Source of the DNA: a virus
Virus record (IMG/VR): IMGVR_UViG_3300043410_001708
Span: 32,001 to 96,000 of that record
DNA: 64,000 bases
Direction: 5' to 3' (one strand)
Both the position numbers and the translations under genes were made by a program. Every line of letters starts with the position of its first letter. The first letter of the stretch is position 1. Positions 15,055-32,373 of the stretch are shown one piece after another. A model generated the notes under the pieces. The model was not told the DNA's origin. It was given only the letters and a program-made list of their open reading frames with translations, and searched no databases.

Positions 15055-15128
15055 TGGAGCGGGATATCAGAATCGAACTGATGACGAAAGATTGGAAATC
15101 TCTAGTTTTGCCATTAAACTAATCCCGC
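15055..15128 (-). tRNA. tRNA-Gly(TCC)
   Basis: cloverleaf, loop TTTCCAA, CCA. Confidence 0.92.
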
Positions 15129-15204
15129 ATATAACTATATATGCATCATTTTAAAACACACATAATGCATTTTAAAATGAGGACTCTTGCGAGTCCCCAT
15201 ACCA

Positions 15205-16632
15205 TCACAATACTTTGTAACGGTCATCCATGATGGTTTTAAGCATCACAGATTCTGGTGTAAAGGTTTCTAAGTCACCCGCCAACAGTGGTTTTACGAC
15301 TGCTGGTGAGAAACCAGATACCAATGCAGTACCAGAAGTGTCGAACTTTACTGGAGCGTTGCCGTATGCGGCATTCAAGTTCCAGAATACAACCTTTGGC
15401 AAAGTGTATCCTGCTTCTTTGTACTTACGTGCAATCATCTGCATAGCAGAGTCATCATGTCTAACGCAAGCGTTAAATTGCATGTCTGACAGAATCAATA
15501 CCATCGCTGGCATTTCTTCTTGTGGCACGCCACCTTTTACTGCTACATCAAGGATTTTTGCAAATGCCTTGTGTAGGTCGGTAGACATACCCCAATCAGA
15601 TTTAACCATTTGGTCAATCTTTTGATTGATGTTACCTTTCAAGTGCAACAATTCTGGATTGGTAGAGAAAGTTAGGAAGGTGTCCTTGAACTTGCCTTCA
15701 TTCTTATCTGCCAAGTATAGTCCCAAAGAGACTGCTACTTCCAAACAGGTTAGACCTGATTTGGAACCATAACCACCTGCAGCGCAGGTCATTGAACCAG
15801 AAACATCCACCAAAGGTAGAATGTTTGCATCGCCAACAAAGTTAGGCAAAGCCTCCCATTGTTTTTGCACCAAGTCCAATTCGGTCTTGTCGAATTTCAT
15901 GTAACCACCGATACGGCCTTTCAGCACATCGTATGGGAACACAGCACCTGCATTAACCTTAACTTCTGGATTATCACCCTTAACCAACGAAGCAACATAT
16001 GCTGCATAAGTTGGAGTGTTACGGTTAAAAGCCTTCTTGTAACGGGATGCCGCTACGGAAGGTACGTGTGAGAAATTGATGGAATCCCAGTCTTTCGCAC
16101 ACATTTGAGTTTCAACCACTTTGGTCATTTCAACCAAAGACTTACGGTAAAACTTTGGGGACATACCAAAGAACTGACGGATTTCAGCCGCTAGTTTACC
16201 TTGGCGAGGAGTCCACTTTGCAGCCAATCCATTCTTCGCACGAAGCGCATCACCCAACATAGTGAATGCTGCTGACTTCATAACATCAGAATCGAATACA
16301 AAAATGTCGTCCCAACGGCCCAATTCAGGAACCTTTGTCAACAATGCTTTTGCGGCTTCTACGTCATTCTTTTCCAAATAACGCAAGATAGTACGGAACG
16401 ATTCACGTTCACCGGCACCACCACGAGCATCACGTAACCAAGCAGCAACACGCAAAGCGAGTTCACGGTTTTCTGCCATTGCAGCTGCGAAAGCAGGCAC
16501 AATGTTTTTGCCACGGGAAGCACCTGCATTGTAGAACAAATCTACAACTGCATTAGCAGTGGACTTACGAGCCTTCATACCGTTTGCGGTACGGGCATCT
16601 TGATTAACAACGGCATCTACAAAAGTTGACAT
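15205..16632 (-). CDS. DUF2828 family TROVE/Ro60-like protein with C-terminal vWA domain
   Basis: LRDARGGAGER, GRWDD, AAKWTPR; MIDAS DVSGSM; SDMQF, VFWNL, VSGFS. Confidence 0.85.
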   Translation of the reverse strand: MSTFVDAVVNQDARTANGMKARKSTANAVVDLFYNAGASRGKNIVPAFAAAMAENRELALRVAAWLRDARGGAGERESFRTILRYLEKNDVEAAKALLTKVPELGRWDDIFVFDSDVMKSAAFTMLGDALRAKNGLAAKWTPRQGKLAAEIRQFFGMSPKFYRKSLVEMTKVVETQMCAKDWDSINFSHVPSVAASRYKKAFNRNTPTYAAYVASLVKGDNPEVKVNAGAVFPYDVLKGRIGGYMKFDKTELDLVQKQWEALPNFVGDANILPLVDVSGSMTCAAGGYGSKSGLTCLEVAVSLGLYLADKNEGKFKDTFLTFSTNPELLHLKGNINQKIDQMVKSDWGMSTDLHKAFAKILDVAVKGGVPQEEMPAMVLILSDMQFNACVRHDDSAMQMIARKYKEAGYTLPKVVFWNLNAAYGNAPVKFDTSGTALVSGFSPAVVKPLLAGDLETFTPESVMLKTIMDDRYKVL

Positions 16633-16652
16633 AACTTACTCCTCATAAAAAA

Positions 16653-16772
16653 ACAACAGAATACATTTTTTAGCGCACTACCAATTGTGCTATTCACGCC
16701 GAAGCGTAAAACAGGATTCGAACCTGTAACCTCTCCGTTATAAGCGGAAAAATTGTTTGCTGTGAGTATTCT
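16653..16772 (-). ncRNA. CAGCA-stem RNA copy 1, carrying a circularly permuted tRNA
   Basis: AGAATAC/GTATTCT stem; anticodon arm, T arm, UUCG-closed acceptor, D arm. Confidence 0.75.
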
Positions 16773-16776
16773 AAAA

Positions 16777-16932
16777 ACAACAGGTTAGCTTTCTACTTTT
16801 TGTTTACAGTGAGAAATCGAAACTCACCTTCGTTAGGACCATTTCAATAAACACCTTCAAAGGTCGAAACCTCCAGTGTTTACCATAGTTACCTAACAGT
16901 TCAGTATTATTGAATAATGCTGTAACTAACCT
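16777..16932 (-). ncRNA. CAGCA-stem RNA copy 2
   Basis: AGGTTAG/CTAACCT stem; long internal hairpin and a T-loop-like hairpin. Confidence 0.7.
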
Positions 16933-16961
16933 AAAACCTTTTCAATCTTTCAATACTGTGT

Positions 16962-17013
16962 ATTGTAACACAAAAATTTGTTGTAGTCAAGCAGTATGTT
17001 GTAAACATACCAC
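16962..17013 (-). promoter_or_regulatory. sigma70 promoter with upstream palindromic box driving the ncRNA-DUF2828 unit
   Basis: GTGGT-N6-ACAAC, N7, TTGACT-17-TACAAT. Confidence 0.65.
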
Positions 17014-17019
17014 AATATT

Positions 17020-17093
17020 TGGTGCCCCATGACAGAATCGAACTGCCGTACCCGGATTACAAAACCGGTGTAATACCATTATACTAATAGGGC
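17020..17093 (-). tRNA. tRNA-Thr(TGT)
   Basis: cloverleaf, loop TTTGTAA. Confidence 0.9.
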
Positions 17094-17101
17094 AAAAAAC
17101 T

Positions 17102-17176
17102 TGGAGCGGGTAGTGGGAATCGAACCCACAACTAAACCTTGGCAAGGTCTTGTGTTACCACTAGCACCATACCCGC
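17102..17176 (-). tRNA. tRNA-Gly(GCC)
   Basis: cloverleaf, loop TTGCCAA. Confidence 0.92.
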
Positions 17177-17185
17177 ATCATGTGT

Positions 17186-17214
17186 ATTATATATGCTTTA
17201 CAAACAATTGTCAA
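17186..17214 (-). promoter_or_regulatory. sigma70 promoter for tRNA-Gly/Thr
   Basis: TTGACA-17-TATAAT. Confidence 0.75.
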
Positions 17215-17234
17215 GCACATTTTTAAAAAATATT

Positions 17235-17318
17235 TGGTACGAGTAACCGGAGTCGAACCGGTACGCACAAGGCGGCAGATTTTAAGTCTGCTGGGTCTAC
17301 CAATTCCCCCATACTCGC
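17235..17318 (-). tRNA. tRNA-Leu(TAA)
   Basis: class II cloverleaf, loop CTTAAAA. Confidence 0.92.
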
Positions 17319-17319
17319 A

Positions 17320-17904
17320 TCACATGGCAGGTCCGTTTCCATTACGGAAACCGACCTCACCACCTTCTTCTTTGATTCGTTTCATAACATCTTCAAAAAG
17401 AATAGGACGAAAATCTGTTTGTTCAACACAAACACAATGATAACGAACATCTGGTGTGTCCAGTTCTTGACCTCCGTTCCATGTCATCATCACACGACCT
17501 GTATGAAGGTGACCGTGAATGTTTGTTCCGAAACGACCAAGACTGGCGGGATGAATTGGAATATGTGAAAGAATCATTCCGTTCATTACATGATACGCAC
17601 GAAGTTCACGGAAGTGTATTCTATATTCATCATCACGGAAGATATCGTGGTTACCACGAATAAGAACTTTATCACCGTTAAGTCTATGCATAATGCTAAG
17701 TGCTTTACGATTGATTACAACATCACCAAGATGATATACTTTATCAGTTGGCTTTACTGTTTCGTTCCAACGCTTAACCATTTCTTCATCCATTTCATTT
17801 GGATCGGTCCATGGTCTAATCTTTTCACCTGTTATGGAGTCGGTGAATCTACACACACCAGCGTGACCAAAGTGTGTGTCACTTACTAAAAATACTGATG
17901 GCAT
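17320..17904 (-). CDS. calcineurin-like metallophosphoesterase
   Basis: SDTHFGH, HLGD, GNHD, SHIP, HGHLH; start reassigned because the track ORF runs through tRNA-Arg. Confidence 0.9.
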   Translation of the reverse strand: MPSVFLVSDTHFGHAGVCRFTDSITGEKIRPWTDPNEMDEEMVKRWNETVKPTDKVYHLGDVVINRKALSIMHRLNGDKVLIRGNHDIFRDDEYRIHFRELRAYHVMNGMILSHIPIHPASLGRFGTNIHGHLHTGRVMMTWNGGQELDTPDVRYHCVCVEQTDFRPILFEDVMKRIKEEGGEVGFRNGNGPAM

Positions 17905-17922
17905 AATAAACTCCTGAAAAAA

Positions 17923-17997
17923 TGGCCCGGCGTGAGGGAATCGAACCCCCATTCGCACTTTAGAAGAATGCTGTCCTATCCATTGAACGAACGCCAG
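17923..17997 (-). tRNA. tRNA-Arg(TCT)
   Basis: cloverleaf, loop CTTCTAA. Confidence 0.9.
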
Positions 17998-18002
17998 AAA
18001 AA

Positions 18003-18443
18003 TCATACTCGGATGTATTCGTAATTAACTGTTTCTTCATTTTCTCTAAAAACAATAGCGCCGTTCTTCAAGTGAAAACGCTTTGCCATTTCAGTTTTTG
18101 GAGATAATGTCACAAATCTTTTTATGTATGGCATATTATTTTCTATGTGTGATACTGCATCAAATATAAGTGTTCCACCAGCACCTGGTGCATAACTCCA
18201 TATTGTATAAAATACCGCAATCTCTGGATCGTTTACCTTTTCAAACAATTCAGATTCTTTTGTCGGAACATTTGTCTGATAACTTACGCATGTGATTGCT
18301 AATACTTTACCATTTGTATCCCGAAGAACAAAAATATCTTTGTTATTACCTACTCTTTCCGTAGTTGGAATGTTAGGCCTGACAGGATCTTCATCCAATA
18401 AATTAAAAAAACTATCTGTGATGGATTTTATAATATGTAACAT
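18003..18443 (-). CDS. GNAT-fold protein
   Basis: AVFYTIWSYAPGAGGTLI...FVTLSP...RFHLKNGA. Confidence 0.6.
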   Translation of the reverse strand: MLHIIKSITDSFFNLLDEDPVRPNIPTTERVGNNKDIFVLRDTNGKVLAITCVSYQTNVPTKESELFEKVNDPEIAVFYTIWSYAPGAGGTLIFDAVSHIENNMPYIKRFVTLSPKTEMAKRFHLKNGAIVFRENEETVNYEYIRV

Positions 18444-18459
18444 GATAACTTAAATATAA

Positions 18460-18536
18460 TGGTGCCCCAGAGGAGACTCGAACTCCTAAAATTTGGTTTC
18501 TAAGACCAACACGTATACCAATTCCGTCACCGGGGC
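18460..18536 (-). tRNA. tRNA-Leu(TAG), short variable region
   Basis: 77 nt cloverleaf, loop CTTAGAA. Confidence 0.88.
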
Positions 18537-18549
18537 AATAAATACTTAT

Positions 18550-18774
18550 ATGATACCTTACGAACAAAGACAAACAGTAAAACCACTTTATGAGTTATTC
18601 TCAAATGAAACATATGTGCCTCATGCTTATTATTGTATTGAATCTGATTTTATCGAATCATATGTTACTGAGATAAAATCTTTTAATGATGATGAAATAT
18701 ATATTCAACCTGAAAAAGAGTTTGTCTTAACAACATTAAAACAAGTTGGTGCTCCTACTAAGAATCGAACTTAG
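18550..18774 (+). CDS. hypothetical protein antisense to the tRNA array
   Basis: ATG at 18550 after ATAAATA; 3' end overlaps tRNA-Thr. Confidence 0.4.
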   Translation: MIPYEQRQTVKPLYELFSNETYVPHAYYCIESDFIESYVTEIKSFNDDEIYIQPEKEFVLTTLKQVGAPTKNRT

Positions 18775-18820
18775 GATACATCCTTACCATGGATGTGGTA
18801 TGCCATTTACCTATAAGAGC
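18747..18820 (-). tRNA. tRNA-Thr(GGT)
   Basis: cloverleaf, loop ATGGTAA. Confidence 0.88.
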
Positions 18821-18825
18821 ATGAT

Positions 18826-18900
18826 TGGTGGGTCGTCAGAGAATCAAACTCTGTTCTTCCGGTTAAGAGCCGGTTGCTTCATCACTTAAGCTTACAACCC
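18826..18900 (-). tRNA. tRNA-Lys(CTT)
   Basis: cloverleaf, loop CTCTTAA. Confidence 0.88.
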
Positions 18901-18903
18901 ATA

Positions 18904-18980
18904 TGGTACCCAAGGTGGGATTCGAGCCCACATAATCTTGCTTTTGAGACAAGCACGTATACCAATTCCGTCACTTGGGT
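18904..18980 (-). tRNA. tRNA-Leu(CAA), short variable region
   Basis: 77 nt cloverleaf, loop CTCAAAA. Confidence 0.85.
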
Positions 18981-18984
18981 ATAT

Positions 18985-19086
18985 ACAACAGGATAGTTTT
19001 TTTACAGTGGGAATTGAACCCACAAGGTTTGCTTAGAAGGCAAATTGCGAACCATTCGCATGTGAATTTTTTGCTGAACCTATCCT
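18985..19086 (-). ncRNA. CAGCA-stem RNA copy 3, carrying a tRNA-Arg(TCT)-like body
   Basis: AGGATAG/CTATCCT stem enclosing D-like, anticodon and T arms; no CCA. Confidence 0.75.
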
Positions 19087-19092
19087 AAAACT

Positions 19093-19168
19093 TGGTGCTG
19101 CCTAGTAGAATCGAACTACTTTCCGAGGTTCTTCAGACCCCTGCTATGACCACATCAGCTAAAGCAGC
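19093..19168 (-). tRNA. tRNA-Phe(GAA)
   Basis: cloverleaf, loop CTGAAGA. Confidence 0.9.
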
Positions 19169-19176
19169 ATATTGAA

Positions 19177-19343
19177 TTTGTAAGTATTGGGACCTCCCTC
19201 ATTTCCCAACATTTTACCGGTATTTTCTGTGAAGCGGCCGACCGGTTAGAGGTACGTAGTAATAGTTGATACTTGGCATCGGCAAAGCACTATCCTCATT
19301 CTTGTATGCCTACAAAAACTTTCTCAACATCTACACTTACAAA
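19177..19343 (-). ncRNA. unidentified structured RNA (about 167 nt)
   Basis: terminal stem TTTGTAAGT/ACTTACAAA, internal hairpins, lies between two tRNAs. Confidence 0.5.
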
Positions 19344-19346
19344 ACT

Positions 19347-19421
19347 TGGTACCTTGTGACGGGATCGAACCGCCGACCTTCTCCTTGTAAGGGAGACACT
19401 CTACCGCTGAGTTAACAAGGC
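19347..19421 (-). tRNA. tRNA-Val(TAC)
   Basis: cloverleaf, loop CTTACAA. Confidence 0.92.
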
Positions 19422-19434
19422 ATAAAATTTACTT

Positions 19435-19509
19435 TGGGGAGATATATGAGAATCGAACTCATGATAACGGAATCACAACCCGTGGTTTTGCCACTAAACT
19501 AATATCTCC
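19435..19509 (-). tRNA. tRNA-His(GTG)
   Basis: G-1:C73, loop TTGTGAT. Confidence 0.9.
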
Positions 19510-19557
19510 CCAAAGTAAACTTTGGAATTTTTAACCGTGTTTATTCACGGGGGTCTG

Positions 19558-20046
19558 TTAGACCTGCAAAGCTTCTTGTTCTGCCAAGATTCTTTTCAAT
19601 CTGTCAGCACAAAAACTTGCAGCTGGTGCGTCTGGTTTAACCATAGGTGTCATGTTACATGTACCCTTGATATAACCAATCGCTTGTTGTACAACACATG
19701 AACTTCCGTACAAGTCATCTTTGTTTAAGTCCAAATGAACTTCAACATGGAAATCTTCTAATACATCAGCCAAGTCTTGGAACAATTCTGAAACCTTATA
19801 CACTTCGGTCATTAACCGCATTGCAGGTTTACTTTTCTTATGGTCATAATCCAACTCACGTTGAACGAAACCAAAAATCTTACAACCATGGCGGCCATCA
19901 ATATGAACTACGACAGCCAAAGCATAGTCTGCATACCATACACCGTTTACACGGATACGTTCTGAGTCAGCACCCAAATATACTTTCGTATCTGGTCCTT
20001 GACTTGCAAGGAATTGCTTAACTTCTTGTATGTCGAACTTTTTCAT
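19558..20046 (-). CDS. RNase H-like YkuK family protein
   Basis: VYLGADS, RLMTEVYK, EVHLDLN, KPDAPAASFCAD; start reassigned to MKKFDIQ. Confidence 0.85.
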   Translation of the reverse strand: MKKFDIQEVKQFLASQGPDTKVYLGADSERIRVNGVWYADYALAVVVHIDGRHGCKIFGFVQRELDYDHKKSKPAMRLMTEVYKVSELFQDLADVLEDFHVEVHLDLNKDDLYGSSCVVQQAIGYIKGTCNMTPMVKPDAPAASFCADRLKRILAEQEALQV

Positions 20047-20076
20047 ATCAATCACCTTTCTTTTTTTTACTAACAC

Positions 20077-20150
20077 TGGCATCCCGACAGGGACTCGAAC
20101 CCCGACCAACAGTTTTGGAGACTGGTATGCTGCCATTACACTATCGAGAT
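20077..20150 (-). tRNA. tRNA-Trp(CCA)
   Basis: cloverleaf, loop CTCCAAA. Confidence 0.9.
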
Positions 20151-20155
20151 ATAAT

Positions 20156-20219
20156 ACAACAGGATAGATTTTACTTTTCAAGTTACAAGTTTGAAGTATT
20201 TTATTGCTGTTACTATCCT
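20156..20219 (-). ncRNA. CAGCA-stem RNA copy 4, carrying an anticodon-like hairpin
   Basis: AGGATAG/CTATCCT stem; inner hairpin loop CTTGTAA. Confidence 0.7.
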
Positions 20220-20224
20220 AAAAA

Positions 20225-20298
20225 TGGTCCTCAGAACAAGAATCGAACTTGTGATGGCCGGTTATCAGCCGACTGTTATACCATTTAACTATCCGAGG
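20225..20298 (-). tRNA. tRNA-Ile(GAT)
   Basis: cloverleaf, loop CTGATAA. Confidence 0.9.
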
Positions 20299-20302
20299 AA
20301 TA

Positions 20303-20378
20303 TGGAGGGTCTTGAGGGATTCAAACCCCCGACCAATTGCTTCGTAGGCAACTACTCTGTTCACTGAGCTAAAGACCC
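20303..20378 (-). tRNA. tRNA-Arg(ACG)
   Basis: cloverleaf, loop CTACGAA. Confidence 0.9.
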
Positions 20379-20384
20379 ATAATC

Positions 20385-20459
20385 TGGTGGTTCAGGTGAG
20401 AATCGAACTCACACAAGGCACCGTATGAAGATGCTGCACTGCCACTATGCTACTGAACC
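20385..20459 (-). tRNA. tRNA-Met(CAT), elongator
   Basis: cloverleaf, loop TTCATAC. Confidence 0.85.
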
Positions 20460-20464
20460 AAATT

Positions 20465-20539
20465 TGGTGGACCGAGGGGGAATCGAACCCCCAACTGTGA
20501 CTTGCAAGGCCACTGTGTTCCCAATTATACCATCAGCCC
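20465..20539 (-). tRNA. tRNA-Ala(TGC)
   Basis: G3:U70, loop CTTGCAA. Confidence 0.92.
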
Positions 20540-20595
20540 AAATTTGTTGTTGACAATTTATCTCATTATACGCCGTCAACAAAGGCGAGTATTAC

Positions 20596-20669
20596 TGGTC
20601 TCGGTGGCAAGAATCGAACTTGCGCCACATGCTCCCAAAGCACGGATGATACCATTTCACCACACCGAG
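20596..20669 (-). tRNA. tRNA-Pro(TGG)
   Basis: cloverleaf, loop TTTGGGA. Confidence 0.9.
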
Positions 20670-20674
20670 AAAAT

Positions 20675-20738
20675 ACAACAGGATCGTTTTTGTCGCTAGA
20701 CATCCAAAAGTTAGCTTGTTTATTGCTGAACCGATCCT
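20675..20738 (-). ncRNA. CAGCA-stem RNA copy 5
   Basis: AGGATCG/CGATCCT stem (compensatory change relative to copies 3 and 4). Confidence 0.7.
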
Positions 20739-20743
20739 AAAAC

Positions 20744-20818
20744 TGGCTCCACAGGCAGGGATCGAACCTACGACCAATTGATTAACAGTCAACTGCACTA
20801 CCGCTGTGCTACTGTGGA
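20744..20818 (-). tRNA. tRNA-Asn(GTT)
   Basis: cloverleaf, loop CTGTTAA. Confidence 0.92.
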
Positions 20819-20825
20819 ATATATC

Positions 20826-20900
20826 TGGCGGTCCCAAGGGGTAACGATCCCCTTCTTTATGCGTGACAGGCATACGTGCGTCCATGAACACTTTGAGACC
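20826..20900 (-). tRNA. tRNA-Asp(GTC)
   Basis: cloverleaf, loop CTGTCAC, atypical T loop ATCGTTA. Confidence 0.88.
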
Positions 20901-20905
20901 AAATA

Positions 20906-21096
20906 TTAGTACAAGCTACTGATTTTCCACGTCAGCCCTTGATTGAGCGGTTTCTCTGTCCATCCCTTTTATCTGGTACCTGTGTGCAGAGGGATACTGC
21001 CTATCAGAGCCTGAGTATTTCTCTCGCTAACGGTTTTCTGCCACCGGATCTCTATCGTTAATCAAACGCTACTTTAACGAAAAGTAGTAACGAGAT
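20906..21096 (-). ncRNA. unidentified structured RNA (about 190 nt)
   Basis: GC-richer non-coding spacer with several hairpins between tRNA-Tyr and tRNA-Asp. Confidence 0.5.
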
Positions 21097-21097
21097 T

Positions 21098-21184
21098 TGG
21101 TGGAGACGGTGTGAGTCGAACACACAATGCCCTGAGGGCGGCGGATTTACAGTCCACTGGGGTTACCAATTTTCCTACATCTCC
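21098..21184 (-). tRNA. tRNA-Tyr(GTA)
   Basis: class II cloverleaf, loop CTGTAAA. Confidence 0.92.
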
Positions 21185-21192
21185 AAATTTTT

Positions 21193-21267
21193 TGGTAGGG
21201 GCACAGAGAATCGAACTCTGATTATCTGGTTAAAAGCCAGGTACTTTCGCCGTTAAGTTATACCCCC
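21193..21267 (-). tRNA. tRNA-Lys(TTT)
   Basis: cloverleaf, loop CTTTTAA. Confidence 0.9.
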
Positions 21268-21273
21268 ATAATT

Positions 21274-21401
21274 TACCATTTGTTTTGCTGACGCACTATA
21301 TGCTATGCTTCAACGGAATAGCTGCAGCGTTACCGTTTATTAACATAGTTACTCAGCATTGAACGTTTCTGCTGTGGCTTACATCAGCAAAACAAATGGT
21401 A
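21274..21401 (-). ncRNA. structured RNA closed by an 18-bp perfect inverted repeat
   Basis: TACCATTTGTTTTGCTGA / TCAGCAAAACAAATGGTA. Confidence 0.55.
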
Positions 21402-21471
21402 CACCTAAGGAGAATCGAACTCCTCTTTCCGCCTTGAAAGGGCAGCGTCCTAACCGATAGACGATAGGTGC
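21397..21471 (-). tRNA. tRNA-Glu(TTC)
   Basis: cloverleaf, loop CTTTCAA. Confidence 0.92.
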
Positions 21472-21475
21472 AAAA

Positions 21476-21580
21476 AACTACAACAAATTTTTAAAGAACA
21501 TTTGATTGATTTCTCAATTCATAGATGAAGTATAACACAACCATGAATCTCTGTCAACCAGTGTGTTGTATTTCTACAAC
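21476..21580 (-). promoter_or_regulatory. tRNA-array promoter with palindromic box and boxB/boxA-like leader
   Basis: GTTGT-N6-ACAAC, N7, TTGACA-17-TATACT, hairpin ATTGA-GAAA-TCAAT, TGTTCTTTAAAAA. Confidence 0.7.
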
Positions 21581-21585
21581 GTGTT

Positions 21586-21661
21586 TGGAGTAGGTGACAG
21601 GAATCGAACCTGCATACAAGTGGTTTGCAATCACTTCCCTAGCCTTTCGGGTCACACCTAC
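21586..21661 (-). tRNA. tRNA-Cys(GCA)
   Basis: cloverleaf, loop TTGCAAA, U73. Confidence 0.88.
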
Positions 21662-21897
21662 ACTAATTTTTTCCTTGAACTACGGTGTGTTTCATCACGC
21701 CGCATAGTCCAATCGTAAGAGTTACCATCTGGTAACTTCTTATCTTTAACTTCATCATATCCAAACTTACCAACGAATTCCATTTCACCATTAGTGATTG
21801 TTACGAATTCGTTAACAGTCTTGGCAAAGAACATTGCACCTGACAATGTTTCATGTTTCCATTCTTTCAATTTTGTTTTTACTATCCACATACTCAT
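21658..21897 (-). CDS. hypothetical protein
   Basis: 79 aa ORF filling a tRNA spacer. Confidence 0.65.
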   Translation of the reverse strand: MSMWIVKTKLKEWKHETLSGAMFFAKTVNEFVTITNGEMEFVGKFGYDEVKDKKLPDGNSYDWTMRRDETHRSSRKKLV

Positions 21898-21905
21898 CTT
21901 TCATT

Positions 21906-21997
21906 TGGTACCAGCGGTGAGAATCGAACTCACTCAAGAACGCTAATCTGGCGCTAAAAGGTGTATAAGACCTCTCTGACTACCAAGTCTCGCTGGC
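21906..21997 (-). tRNA. atypical tRNA-Ile(TAT) with tiny D loop and long variable arm
   Basis: 92 nt; acceptor GCCAGCG/CGCTGGT, loop CTTATAC, T arm GTGAG-TTCGATT-CTCAC, CCA. Confidence 0.7.
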
Positions 21998-21999
21998 AT

Positions 22000-22089
22000 T
22001 GGTGGAGAGTCAGGGAGTCGAACCCTGTGACCTACTTTCGTAAATCTACGGATTAGCAATCCGCTGCATTACCATCCTGCCCACTCTCC
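22000..22089 (-). tRNA. tRNA-Ser(GCT)
   Basis: class II cloverleaf, loop TTGCTAA. Confidence 0.92.
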
Positions 22090-22095
22090 GAATTT

Positions 22096-22185
22096 TGGTG
22101 GAAGCGGTGAGATTCGAACTCACGGACCCTTTCGGATCGGCAGTTTTCAAGACTGCTGCAATAAACCGGACTCTGCCACACTTCC
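22096..22185 (-). tRNA. tRNA-Ser(TGA)
   Basis: class II cloverleaf, loop CTTGAAA. Confidence 0.92.
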
Positions 22186-22263
22186 ATATAGAAACACACT
22201 ACTGGCTATACACTCAGCGTCCCAAGTGCTACCAGAATCTAACTGGCGTAATGTGTTTTTATA

Positions 22264-22339
22264 TGGCAGGGGTTATCAGATTCGAACTGATGATGACGAT
22301 TTCAAAGACCGTTGCCTTAGGCCACTAGGCGAAACCCCA
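22264..22339 (-). tRNA. tRNA-Gln(TTG)
   Basis: cloverleaf, loop CTTTGAA. Confidence 0.9.
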
Positions 22340-22343
22340 ACAT

Positions 22344-22427
22344 AAACTACAACAAATTTTTAAAGAACAAGTGTGTATTGTAACAGAACCAAAGGTCCTG
22401 GCAACTACACTGTTGTATTGAAACAAC
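22344..22427 (-). promoter_or_regulatory. tRNA-array promoter with palindromic box and boxA-like leader
   Basis: GTTGT-N6-ACAAC, N7, TTGCCA-16-TACAAT, TGTTCTTTAAAAATTTGTTGTAGTTT. Confidence 0.6.
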
Positions 22428-22431
22428 AAAC

Positions 22432-22463
22432 AAAAAACCCTAGTAGATTTCTCTTACTAGGGT
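22432..22463 (-). terminator. intrinsic terminator (candidate attenuator hairpin)
   Basis: ACCCTAGTA-AGAGAAATC-TACTAGGGT followed by a T run. Confidence 0.8.
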
Positions 22464-22496
22464 CTTGTGTTTGGAGTCTTTTTTAGAACTTCTGTT

Positions 22497-22610
22497 TTAG
22501 TTCTCCATCTTCACACAAAACCCGGTTGCAATCGCCCATGAGCTATCAGCGCAATTAACTGTGCGATACTCTGGTTGCAACGTAAAGGGTTTATGAGATA
22601 TGAGAGACAC
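22497..22610 (-). CDS. candidate leader peptide (37 aa, all 20 amino acids)
   Basis: GTG start, MSLISHKPFTLQPEYRTVNCADSSWAIATGFCVKMEN; lies between a promoter and a terminator. Confidence 0.65.
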   Translation of the reverse strand: MSLISHKPFTLQPEYRTVNCADSSWAIATGFCVKMEN

Positions 22611-22640
22611 TTTTTTCTTTCTAAAATTTAATATATGTGT

Positions 22641-22669
22641 ATTATATAGGAACTTTTTAACCTCGGCAA
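22641..22669 (-). promoter_or_regulatory. sigma70 promoter of the leader/attenuator
   Basis: TTGCCG-17-TATAAT. Confidence 0.7.
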
Positions 22670-22682
22670 GCGGTTTTTGAAA

Positions 22683-23216
22683 TTATTTTTTGAATCCTTG
22701 AAAAAATAATTCGGGAGTATCATTTGTTTCAAACTTATAAGAATGAAACATACTATCTATATCAAAGTTAGTACGAAAATCTTCTTCTGTAAGATTCTTG
22801 TAATATTCCCAACCTTTACCGACAGTCAGTGGACTATCTTCTGGTTTTGCATTTGATGTACCATGTTCAGGTGCACCAGTTGTCGGTACAGTAATGAAAA
22901 CTAATCCGTCTTTTTTGGTCATGCGATACATGTTTTGAAATGTTTCAACCCAAAATGGATTGTGTTCAAAACAATTACATGAACCTGTTGTATCGTATGT
23001 GCCGTCTGAATGGTCAACTAATTGACCCTCGCAAACTAAATCAACACTAGGTCCTTCAGCAACATCAACGCCAGTATAATCACAGTCTTTAAAATGACTT
23101 CTCATAGTACCATTGATATCTAAACTACCAACTTCTAAAACTTTTGCGTTATTGAAGTTTTGTGGAAATTGTTTTGACAAATTTCTAACATATTCTTGTT
23201 GTGCTGGATGTGACAT
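22683..23216 (-). CDS. class I SAM-dependent methyltransferase
   Basis: VLEVGS..YTGVD..VDLV..FEH..FITVP. Confidence 0.8.
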   Translation of the reverse strand: MSHPAQQEYVRNLSKQFPQNFNNAKVLEVGSLDINGTMRSHFKDCDYTGVDVAEGPSVDLVCEGQLVDHSDGTYDTTGSCNCFEHNPFWVETFQNMYRMTKKDGLVFITVPTTGAPEHGTSNAKPEDSPLTVGKGWEYYKNLTEEDFRTNFDIDSMFHSYKFETNDTPELFFQGFKK

Positions 23217-31107: not shown

Positions 31108-32373
31108 TTATCTGCCAACTTGCGGCAAATACTTAGCCTTGGTTTCTTCCCAAGACAGGTATATCAAGTCATCATAAAACAATGATTCATAAGATACATT
31201 ATTCTTTTTCTTCAACATTGATATACGACCCTTGGCATATTTGGTTTTCCAAATTTGCGTCAAGGTTTCTTCACTGGTATCAAATGATTTGACCAGTTGT
31301 TCATCACCAATTTCTTTCCTAAGATACTCATTGGTGTTGTTATAGAGAGGTGAGAAATAGATGCCTCTCTGATGTTCGGTACGGATAAGTTCTTTTGGAA
31401 TACCTAACTTACCATACGCAAAATTTAATGTACGATTTTTGTGGTCACGTTTAAGTGGAAGTCCTTTTTGATTCTTGGCTTCCCACCACTCAAAATATTT
31501 ACGTGTATGATTCTCTTTTACCCAATCATAAATCATTGTTCTGGTTTTTCTGGACGGTTCAAAAGCAACAGAACCACTAGAGAAACCCATTTTGTTCCAA
31601 TGTTCAAGACCATCATACTGAGATAGACCATTGGACTTAGTATTACCATAAAGAGAAGTAGTTGTAACTCCAACAAGAACATCACCATATTGTTTTTTCC
31701 AATCATTCTGTACAGTATCGGCAAGACACAATAGTGCCAACAATTTTCCACCCATGTAATTGAAACCAAGTGGTTGTAATGGAACAATTGTGGAACCGAT
31801 TGCAGTATGATTAATCATACCTTGTTGTGTCTTAACATCTCTAGGCCAACCGATGGCCGTGTCTCTTGGAGTCAAGTCCAAGAAGTCGGATGATATACAG
31901 ATAACACCAAGATATTTGTCTGTAACTTCATCAACCACAGTGTAATAAAGATTGCGGCCAATGTTTGAATTGTTTTTCATTGTGGAAGAAAATGTACGTA
32001 CAGTATTCCACGTTTCTGCCAAAGGTCCGTTAGATAAAACCAACTTTGGTTTTAGTTTTTCATAATCATCTGGACCTTCTGGCATCCAAAAATTCTTCTT
32101 TACTTTTTCAACCAGTTTCTTTTGTGTAACATCTACCAATTGTACTTCTTCTTCAAAAAGTGTACTGATGGTTCTGGTTGGATATTTCTCATGGACCTCT
32201 AACCACTTTTGATATAAGGTATACTCACGCACATCCATTTGTGATGCATACGTGAGGTCCTTAATCAATATCTCTTTCAATTGCTCGGTATCAATATGTT
32301 CAAAACGTTCAGGATCATTTAGTACCTGCCATTTCTCCCACTGAGCATCAACATAATCTATAGGTGTGGCCAT
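31108..32373 (-). CDS. DUF4338/DruA-like protein (paralog 2)
   Basis: VPLQPLGFNYMGGKLLA and TTTSLYG..SQYDG motifs. Confidence 0.7.
   Translation of the reverse strand: MATPIDYVDAQWEKWQVLNDPERFEHIDTEQLKEILIKDLTYASQMDVREYTLYQKWLEVHEKYPTRTISTLFEEEVQLVDVTQKKLVEKVKKNFWMPEGPDDYEKLKPKLVLSNGPLAETWNTVRTFSSTMKNNSNIGRNLYYTVVDEVTDKYLGVICISSDFLDLTPRDTAIGWPRDVKTQQGMINHTAIGSTIVPLQPLGFNYMGGKLLALLCLADTVQNDWKKQYGDVLVGVTTTSLYGNTKSNGLSQYDGLEHWNKMGFSSGSVAFEPSRKTRTMIYDWVKENHTRKYFEWWEAKNQKGLPLKRDHKNRTLNFAYGKLGIPKELIRTEHQRGIYFSPLYNNTNEYLRKEIGDEQLVKSFDTSEETLTQIWKTKYAKGRISMLKKKNNVSYESLFYDDLIYLSWEETKAKYLPQVGR

Follow-up and report, generated by a model that had tools for sequence, protein, structure and literature searches.

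Several amino-acid operons of enterobacteria are controlled by leader-peptide attenuators, including trpL, hisL, leuL and pheL and the multivalent leaders thrL and ilvL. Another leader attenuator, pheM, serves the pheST operon of E. coli, which encodes Phe-tRNA synthetase. Here we describe an element with a comparable arrangement that precedes an array of tRNA genes in a phage. The element lies on the minus strand at positions 22432-22669 of a 64,000-nucleotide stretch of viral DNA (positions 32,001 to 96,000 of IMG/VR record IMGVR_UViG_3300043410_001708), and this whole stretch is called the window below. Comparison with its relatives suggests that the element probably acts as a ribosome-mediated (leader-peptide) transcription attenuator, which would gate read-through from an upstream promoter, P1, into the phage tRNA array.

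Like the enterobacterial leaders, the phage element has a promoter-proximal short open reading frame (ORF), an intrinsic terminator before the target genes, an antiterminator with one strand in common with it, and an ORF that ends where ribosome position can decide between the two helices. It differs from them in that its targets are tRNA genes rather than biosynthetic enzymes, its carrier is a phage, most of its members are apparently leaderless, and the 1:2 helix is unproven. Moreover, near-maximal amino-acid and codon diversity takes the place of the run of one or two regulatory codons. As with pheM, the attenuator would read decoding speed and thereby adjust the supply of part of the translation machinery. 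However, pheM responds to a single amino acid, its target is a synthetase rather than a tRNA array, and no sequence relationship between the two is expected.

Other described systems share parts of this logic. In the stalling leader ORFs of resistance genes (e.g., vmlR, PMC9226507), a slowed ribosome flips a terminator to an antiterminator, and the leader thereby serves as a general sensor of translation stress. Unlike the phage leader, these ORFs control resistance factors in bacteria. We know of no selection for complete amino-acid coverage among them. T-box riboswitches are similar in using a terminator/antiterminator switch that reports tRNA charging, but their leaders are untranslated and bind one tRNA directly, whereas the phage leader contains an ORF whose frame is under selection. 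The nearest published case is the trn operon of Anabaena sp. PCC 7120, a long tRNA array that is induced under translational stress (PMC8421152, PMC10272220). The physiological logic is the same, since accessory tRNAs increase when translation is impaired. In contrast to the attenuation proposed for the phage leader, the trn operon is controlled at initiation by the repressor TrcR, which binds direct repeats over the -10 box and start site (PMC8421152), and the text of that report contains none of the terms “leader peptide,” “attenuat” or “terminator.” No leader-peptide attenuator of tRNA genes came up in full-text searches of the literature.

The components of the phage element and its immediate surroundings are as follows.

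22641-22669, minus strand: promoter P1 of the sigma-70 type, TTGCCG-17-TATAAT, read from the sequence
22611-22634, minus strand: predicted 5′ untranslated region (UTR) of the leader, with a purine-rich Shine-Dalgarno-like stretch at 22622-22617
22497-22610, minus strand: leader ORF with a GTG start at 22610 and 37 codons followed by TAA (22499-22497)
22587-22595, minus strand: segment 1, candidate anti-antiterminator strand, codons 6-8
22525-22581, minus strand: central hairpin domain within the ORF
22513-22523, minus strand: segment 2 (GGGTTTTGTGT), 5′ strand of the antiterminator, codons 30-33
22485-22504, minus strand: small inner hairpin with the stop codon, in the antiterminator loop, judged by eye
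22460-22470, minus strand: segment 3 (ACACAAGACCC), common to the antiterminator and the 5′ arm of the terminator
22432-22463, minus strand: intrinsic terminator with a 9-bp stem (22463-22455/22445-22437), a 9-nt loop and a T run to 22432
22377-22404, minus strand: promoter P2, TTGCCA-16-TACAAT, between the terminator and tRNA-Gln
22264-22339, minus strand: tRNA-Gln, first gene of the array
15055-22339, minus strand: tRNA array of 27 genes covering all 20 amino acids, the proposed regulated target
22683-23216, minus strand: S-adenosylmethionine (SAM)-dependent methyltransferase gene upstream of the leader, given as context and used as bait for relatives

The element fills the 343-nt spacer between the methyltransferase gene (23216-22683) and tRNA-Gln. 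A first-pass annotation made from the sequence alone had proposed P1, the purine-rich stretch, the GTG ORF, segments 1 to 3 and the terminator, and all are found at the claimed positions on the minus strand. Its hand counts for the leader ORF (20 amino-acid types, 33 distinct codons among 37, and 29 of the first 30 codons distinct) are correct, and its distance of about 90 nt between the terminator and the first tRNA agrees with our measurement, which places the start of tRNA-Gln (22339) 92 nt past the T run. The transcript start, 22634, was predicted solely from the position of the -10 hexamer. In the small inner hairpin, the 3′ strand appears by eye to be kept among relatives and its partner strand is variable.

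The codon diversity of the window leader was suspected to exceed chance, and this is true under the codon usage of the phage itself: 24.5 distinct codons (standard deviation [sd] 2.2) are expected in an ORF of this length, and at least 33 are obtained with P = 1e-4. The presence of all 20 amino acids in 37 residues has a probability of only ~1.4e-3 to 3e-3. Furthermore, among the 282 small ORFs found in the six frames of the window, two contain 20 types, this leader and a spurious one. The single ORF is not convincing on its own because the all-20 probability is modest and another small ORF also reaches this number. The case for significance is therefore made at the level of the family, by comparison of relatives.

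Relatives were retrieved by using the neighboring methyltransferase, the segment 2/segment 3 pattern, and two anchors outside the switch, namely the junction of promoter and ATG and the region around the GTG start, followed by a hidden Markov model (HMM) search. A total of 66 elements encoding 49 distinct peptides were collected from viral metagenome contigs, and both P1 hexamers are kept in ~60 of the 66. A tRNA array follows in 52 of the 52 copies for which downstream sequence is available (55 distinct copies were tabulated), and tRNA genes likewise lie downstream in 15 further divergent sequences. The exception in spacing is one sequence found in two copies (L144 = L202), wherein the first tRNA-Ser is located ~455-480 nt downstream of the element. 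A DNA search with 1 kb around the element found no match in 50,697 cultured-phage records, which leaves the family without an available cultured relative, and neither a pattern scan nor the element HMM found it in 185,579 prokaryote genomes. Five pattern-scan matches in the prokaryote genomes do not fit the element HMM and look like chance hairpins. A protein search with a 40-residue family member gave a single 48-residue match, which indicates that gene callers almost never call the leader ORF.

If the leader ORF is translated, then its reading frame should be preserved among relatives, as the first-pass annotation anticipated for a short ORF upstream of tRNA arrays. The frame is open in 66 of 66 copies, which range from 30 to 45 codons; in-frame stops are absent, whereas the other two frames contain 129 and 247. 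When the nucleotides are aligned without regard to codons, the gap runs inside the ORF are 3, 3, 3, 6, 6, 9, 9 and 18 nt, all multiples of three, and those in the 3′ UTR are 1, 2, 2, 3, 3, 5 and 6 nt. In 40 of the 66 copies the start codon is an ATG, the A of which is the seventh base after the -10 hexamer and hence the predicted +1. These leaders look leaderless because the ATG is at the predicted transcript start. The GTG start and weak ribosome binding site that were described for the window are indeed present, but they are peculiar to its clade. There, the ATG has been lost, and GTG and the purine-rich stretch have been gained through a frame-keeping insertion of 24-27 nt that is specific to the GTG clade and includes the predicted 5′ UTR and first codons. 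These data indicate that the leader ORF is selected as a reading frame whose start codon was replaced, not lost, and they predict that it is translated. The ORF is nonetheless unlike an ordinary protein gene, since its codon adaptation index lies at the 0.2 percentile of phage gene windows and its peptide varies freely at segment 2 and the central hairpin, where the RNA pairing is preserved.

The amino-acid composition of the leaders is unusually broad. Among the 49 distinct peptides, 31 contain 20 amino-acid types, eight contain 19, two contain 18, seven contain 17 and one contains 16, and the all-20 group takes in a 33-residue member as well as strongly diverged members of 41-45 residues. 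We compared these values with a phylogeny-preserving null in which the state patterns of alignment columns are kept and the states are relabeled with random amino acids drawn from proteome, random-codon or uniform backgrounds. The mean number of distinct types is 19.24, versus 16.0-16.8 for the null (sd 0.6-0.7), and 0 of 5000 randomizations reach 19.24. Likewise, the null yields a maximum of 15 all-20 peptides, compared to the 31 observed. No run of regulatory codons is present, as 33 of 37 codons are distinct in the window leader and 16-20 types occur per leader. These findings argue that amino-acid breadth is a selected property of the leader family, although it is a strong tendency and not a rule. 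Long leaders, which have 19-20 types, precede 21-32 tRNAs that mostly cover all 20 amino acids; two arrays lack one or two types in the available sequence.

Additional evidence comes from the pairing potential of the RNA. The full leader RNA folds with z = -5.0 relative to shuffled sequences. In the minimum-energy fold of the complete leader, the terminator is formed and segment 2 is paired upstream with segment 1. Deleting the 3′ arm of the terminator alone moves segment 2 onto segment 3 to form 11 bp in the window leader, and the same fold switch (10-11 bp of 2:3 pairing) is seen in 37 of the 49 relatives and in most divergent elements. The last four bases of segment 3 are part of the terminator stem, and therefore the 2:3 and 3:4 helices exclude each other. 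Segment 2 begins 4-11 codons before the stop codon in 66 of 66 copies, such that a ribosome at the stop codon would block it.

Both of the mutually exclusive pairings that had been proposed show covariation among relatives. In an alignment-free test of ten haplotypes, in which the segment-2 region was paired with segment 3 and compared with permutations, cognate 2:3 duplexes total -153.9 kcal/mol versus -109.7 (sd 10.4) for noncognate duplexes (p = 1e-5). A covariance-model alignment was fitted on only six of the 11 base pairs between segments 2 and 3. In it, this helix is paired at 95% and eight of its 11 pairs show compensatory changes, and the 3:4 terminator helix is paired in 100% of cells with compensatory changes at six of eight pairs. 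These counts are from sense rows only. Eight antisense matches to the bidirectional terminator had inflated the covariation figures and were removed before recounting, and a MAFFT alignment of the 3′ half, which misaligned segment 2 in divergent members, was excluded from the pair counts.

Individual relatives illustrate how the competing strands change together. In two copies (L152 and L166), one extra G in segment 2 is accompanied by an extra C in segment 3 and an extra G in segment 4. Another (L134) carries a U-to-C change in both segment 2 and segment 4, opposite one segment 3 G, and in a third case (L171) a G-to-A change in segment 2 is matched by a C-to-U change in segment 3. The most extensive replacement (L132) converts GGG/CCC/GGG into GAGG/CCUC/GAGG in segments 2/3/4. 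This three-way covariation argues that the competition for segment 3 is itself selected. The central hairpin is also preserved as a structure: its closing stem is kept, its inner stems covary, and indels preserve the fold while the encoded peptide changes. An Rfam scan at a permissive threshold (E up to 10) revealed only tRNA-Gln and sub-threshold noise, with no T-box match. The His_leader family scored 18.4 bits against a gathering score of 49 (E = 1.5), and this score was driven by the terminator.

The position of the element relative to the tRNA genes takes two forms. In the long-leader layout, which includes the window, an ORF of 33-45 codons is followed by the terminator, by ~86-127 nt containing P2, and then by tRNA-Gln. 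In the short-leader layout (11 copies), an ORF of 30 codons precedes a tRNA-Ser or tRNA-Trp that begins 2-14 nt past the T run, with no second promoter. Among 42 tabulated relatives, all long-leader copies that are followed by a tRNA have P2, which is absent in the short-leader clade. Because no second promoter precedes the short-leader tRNAs, the sole promoter seen lies upstream of the terminator. In this clade, terminator read-through would be the only visible route into the tRNA genes, which is hard to reconcile with an unregulated terminator. Thus, the switch is predicted to be modulatory in the window clade and the only gate in the short-leader clade. The second promoter downstream from the terminator, and the modulatory control that it implies, had been foreseen as a caveat and correspond to P2 at 22404-22377.

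Three short-leader relatives without P1 (L058 470-490, L066 1355-1375 and L097 7821-7841) carry the sequence TATAAATA, which resembles a T4 late-promoter box, 5 nt before the leader ATG and right after the stop codon of the upstream gene. In these phages the switch may be driven at a different infection time. Some indication of expression is available from one freshwater metatranscriptome, in which contig depth is 11-78 on the leader versus 0-6 on the upstream methyltransferase gene. The contigs, at 22513-22613 and 22365-22486, include short ones on the leader ORF and two that bridge the terminator into P2. They are a weak hint of leader expression, as these are contigs only, from a library that possibly contains DNA, and they are silent on the start, end and level of the transcript.

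The layout, the selection on the reading frame, the covariation of the 2:3 and 3:4 helices, the position ahead of tRNA genes and the excess of amino-acid types are all backed by comparison among relatives, and they can be accommodated by the following mechanism. RNA polymerase starting at P1 would transcribe the 30-45 codon ORF, whose last codons include segment 2. A ribosome following close behind would reach the end of the ORF and occupy or sterically block segment 2. Segment 3 would then pair with segment 4, the terminator would form, and a leader RNA of ~200 nt would be released. If instead the ribosome falls behind or stalls at any earlier point, segment 2 would be free to capture segment 3 once it is made. 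This 2:3 pairing would take four bases from the terminator stem, and the polymerase would continue into the tRNA genes. Since almost all amino acids are represented in the leader, most of them a single time, and many of its codons are rare, the switch should respond to almost any slow codon, and slow decoding of almost any codon class would lead to more tRNA transcription. The new tRNAs would speed translation of the leader and restore termination, thereby closing a feedback loop. Leaders that are not translated would terminate, as in trp, if the 1:2 helix is real, and would be read through if it is not. In this scheme the transcript start, translation of the ORF, the position of the ribosome, the sign of the response and its physiological trigger are predictions.

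A broader physiological interpretation, which we advance tentatively, is that the element acts homeostatically by sensing decoding capacity. Whenever any one tRNA runs short, transcription of the complete phage tRNA set might increase, and the new tRNAs would then turn the switch off again. Such shortages could arise from codon-usage mismatch, host shut-off, starvation, or host defenses that cleave tRNAs. Stalling-dependent read-through is something that we infer, as is any link to host anticodon nucleases, both of which had been part of the first-pass annotation.

Several observations weigh against attenuation by decoding speed. The original picture of an all-20 leader must be relaxed: breadth is selected at the family level, but it is not universal. 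Peptides range from 16 to 20 types, with 16-18 in the short-leader clade and 17-19 in some divergent members. The short leaders lack Ala, Gly, and Ile or Gln, and one peptide lacks both Ile and Gln. A widespread variant has no Gln although tRNA-Gln heads its array; a sister variant regains Gln at the next codon. The 30-codon leaders precede 12-14 tRNAs, and leader and array both lack Ala, but F, L, V and K codons in these leaders have no tRNA counterpart in the array, and Gly is missing from the leaders despite the presence of tRNA-Gly. Overall, the match between the amino-acid set of the short leaders and the 12-14 tRNAs that follow is not significant.

Other objections concern the switch and its translation. 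Pairing between segments 1 and 2, at ORF nucleotides 13-27, is present as claimed in the minimum-energy folds of 47 of 49 copies, but it is no stronger than in dinucleotide shuffles (mean z -0.54) and gives p = 0.058 in the cognate test. The 1:2 helix, which is needed for a full trp-type three-state switch, is therefore unproven, and an untranslated leader lacking it would read through instead of terminate. The GTG start in the window clade has only a weak Shine-Dalgarno-like stretch. In variants with six codons from segment 2 to the stop, segment 2 would lie beyond the direct footprint of a terminating ribosome, and the block would have to be steric. In the window clade P2 lies after the terminator, and thus read-through from P1 can only add to tRNA transcription. 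Finally, translation, transcript start, termination and read-through are all predictions.

Two other explanations for these data deserve consideration. It is unlikely, but conceivable, that the terminator and antiterminator are set by a trans-acting factor (a protein, uncharged tRNA or small molecule) or by a ligand-specific arrest peptide, in which case the signal would be something other than general decoding speed. In favor of this explanation, the conserved palindrome of the central hairpin could serve as a binding site, synonymous sites are included among the invariant positions of several nucleotide blocks, and the published stress-induced tRNA array uses a repressor protein (PMC8421152, PMC10272220). 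However, no Rfam family including T-box matches at threshold, no peptide motif of the sort that an arrest peptide might need is conserved across all clades, and frame conservation and start-codon replacement point to selection on translation. Regulation of this type also does not predict the excess of amino-acid diversity. A TnaC-like arrest peptide with a fixed Trp-to-stop spacing was rejected as a separate candidate; this spacing is 9-14 residues in four peptides, and the peptide is not conserved across clades.

Slightly less probable still is the explanation that P1, the ORF and the terminator form a stand-alone unit, either a micro-protein gene or the source of a small RNA, that lies before the array by chance. 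The tRNAs would then be expressed from P2 or other promoters, and the 2:3 helix would only shape mRNA stability or terminator efficiency. The separate promoter that follows the P1-ORF-terminator unit in the window is compatible with this arrangement, as is the frame selection on the ORF, parts of whose peptide are conserved in most clades, and the 3′ UTR is near-invariant among close relatives, as a small-RNA seed might be. In contrast, the tRNA array begins 2-14 nt past the T run in the 11 short-leader relatives, which have no other promoter. The conserved codons coincide with hairpin stems in which synonymous sites are invariant, the peptide changes freely exactly where RNA pairing is kept, and codon usage is far from that of phage genes. 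The three-way covariation of segments 2, 3 and 4, which argues for selected competition for segment 3, is likewise unexpected for a unit of this kind. The notion that the ORF and pairings are chance features of an AT-rich spacer beside an ordinary terminator is very improbable. The all-20 probability is just ~2e-3, a second, spurious ORF of the window also reaches 20 types, and the 1:2 pairing is no better than in shuffles, but chance is contradicted by the comparative data on context, frame, gaps, covariation and amino-acid breadth. Ribosome-mediated attenuation therefore appears to us to be the probable function of the element.

The source record of the window is a 106-kb IMG/VR virus with an estimated completeness of 63%. 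Matches to DNA polymerase, portal, sheath and large terminase families identify the phage as a T4-like myovirus, and its nearest cultured phages are cyanomyoviruses, whose portal proteins share ~55% identity with its own. Within the tRNA region, a 475-residue ORF at 15205-16632 matches PHROG 850, annotated as “RNA-binding protein,” and ARAGORN reports an unusually long tRNA-Ile (92 nt) at 21906-21997 with an off-position TAT anticodon. Distant relatives (L026-L045) have the methyltransferase gene embedded in tRNA arrays without the leader; for example, a tRNA-Gly is found 4 nt past its stop codon. The linkage between methyltransferase and tRNA genes thus seems older than the attenuator.

Additional sequence features are found in and around the leader. 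One is located downstream of P2, outside the switch, and was read from the sequence:

22357-22369, minus strand: boxA-like element in the P2 leader

A 26-nt sequence just past P2 is repeated exactly at ~21475-21500 on the minus strand, behind the next strong promoter in the array (21557-21529), and the repeat recurs ~0.8-1.1 kb downstream in relatives as well. We take its first 13 bases to resemble the boxA of rrn operons. This likeness suggests Nus-type antitermination of the tRNA transcripts. The P2 spacer (22384-22400) contains an imperfect inverted repeat, both halves of which change together among relatives; this repeat may serve as the operator of a P2 regulator. A second inverted repeat, GTTGT-N6-ACAAC, at 22409-22424 between the T run of the terminator and the -35 element of P2, is kept in all aligned long-leader relatives and could bind a protein or, in the read-through RNA, form a small hairpin. 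The invariant bases after the central hairpin (22540-22547, minus strand) presumably fit the elemental pause consensus of G at -10, a pyrimidine at -1 and G at +1. A hairpin-stabilized pause at this site could synchronize ribosome and polymerase as in his and trp leaders, but this proposal is speculative.

The element recurs, unannotated, in dozens of uncultured freshwater T4-like phages. Since it contains a sigma-70-type promoter and an intrinsic terminator, the ~240-nt element should work for testing in E. coli, and it could serve as a compact reporter of translation stress. If our interpretation is true, it would be the first known case of an attenuator that regulates tRNA genes, and of one that reads all amino acids simultaneously. 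Attenuation, known classically from biosynthetic operons that sense single amino acids, would be extended to the decoding machinery, sensed across all amino acids. The reason for the presence of tRNA arrays in phages and the timing of their expression are open questions that are now tied to the depletion of host tRNAs and to defense systems that target tRNAs. A switch that reads ribosome speed on an all-amino-acid leader would give phages a demand-driven supply of tRNAs.

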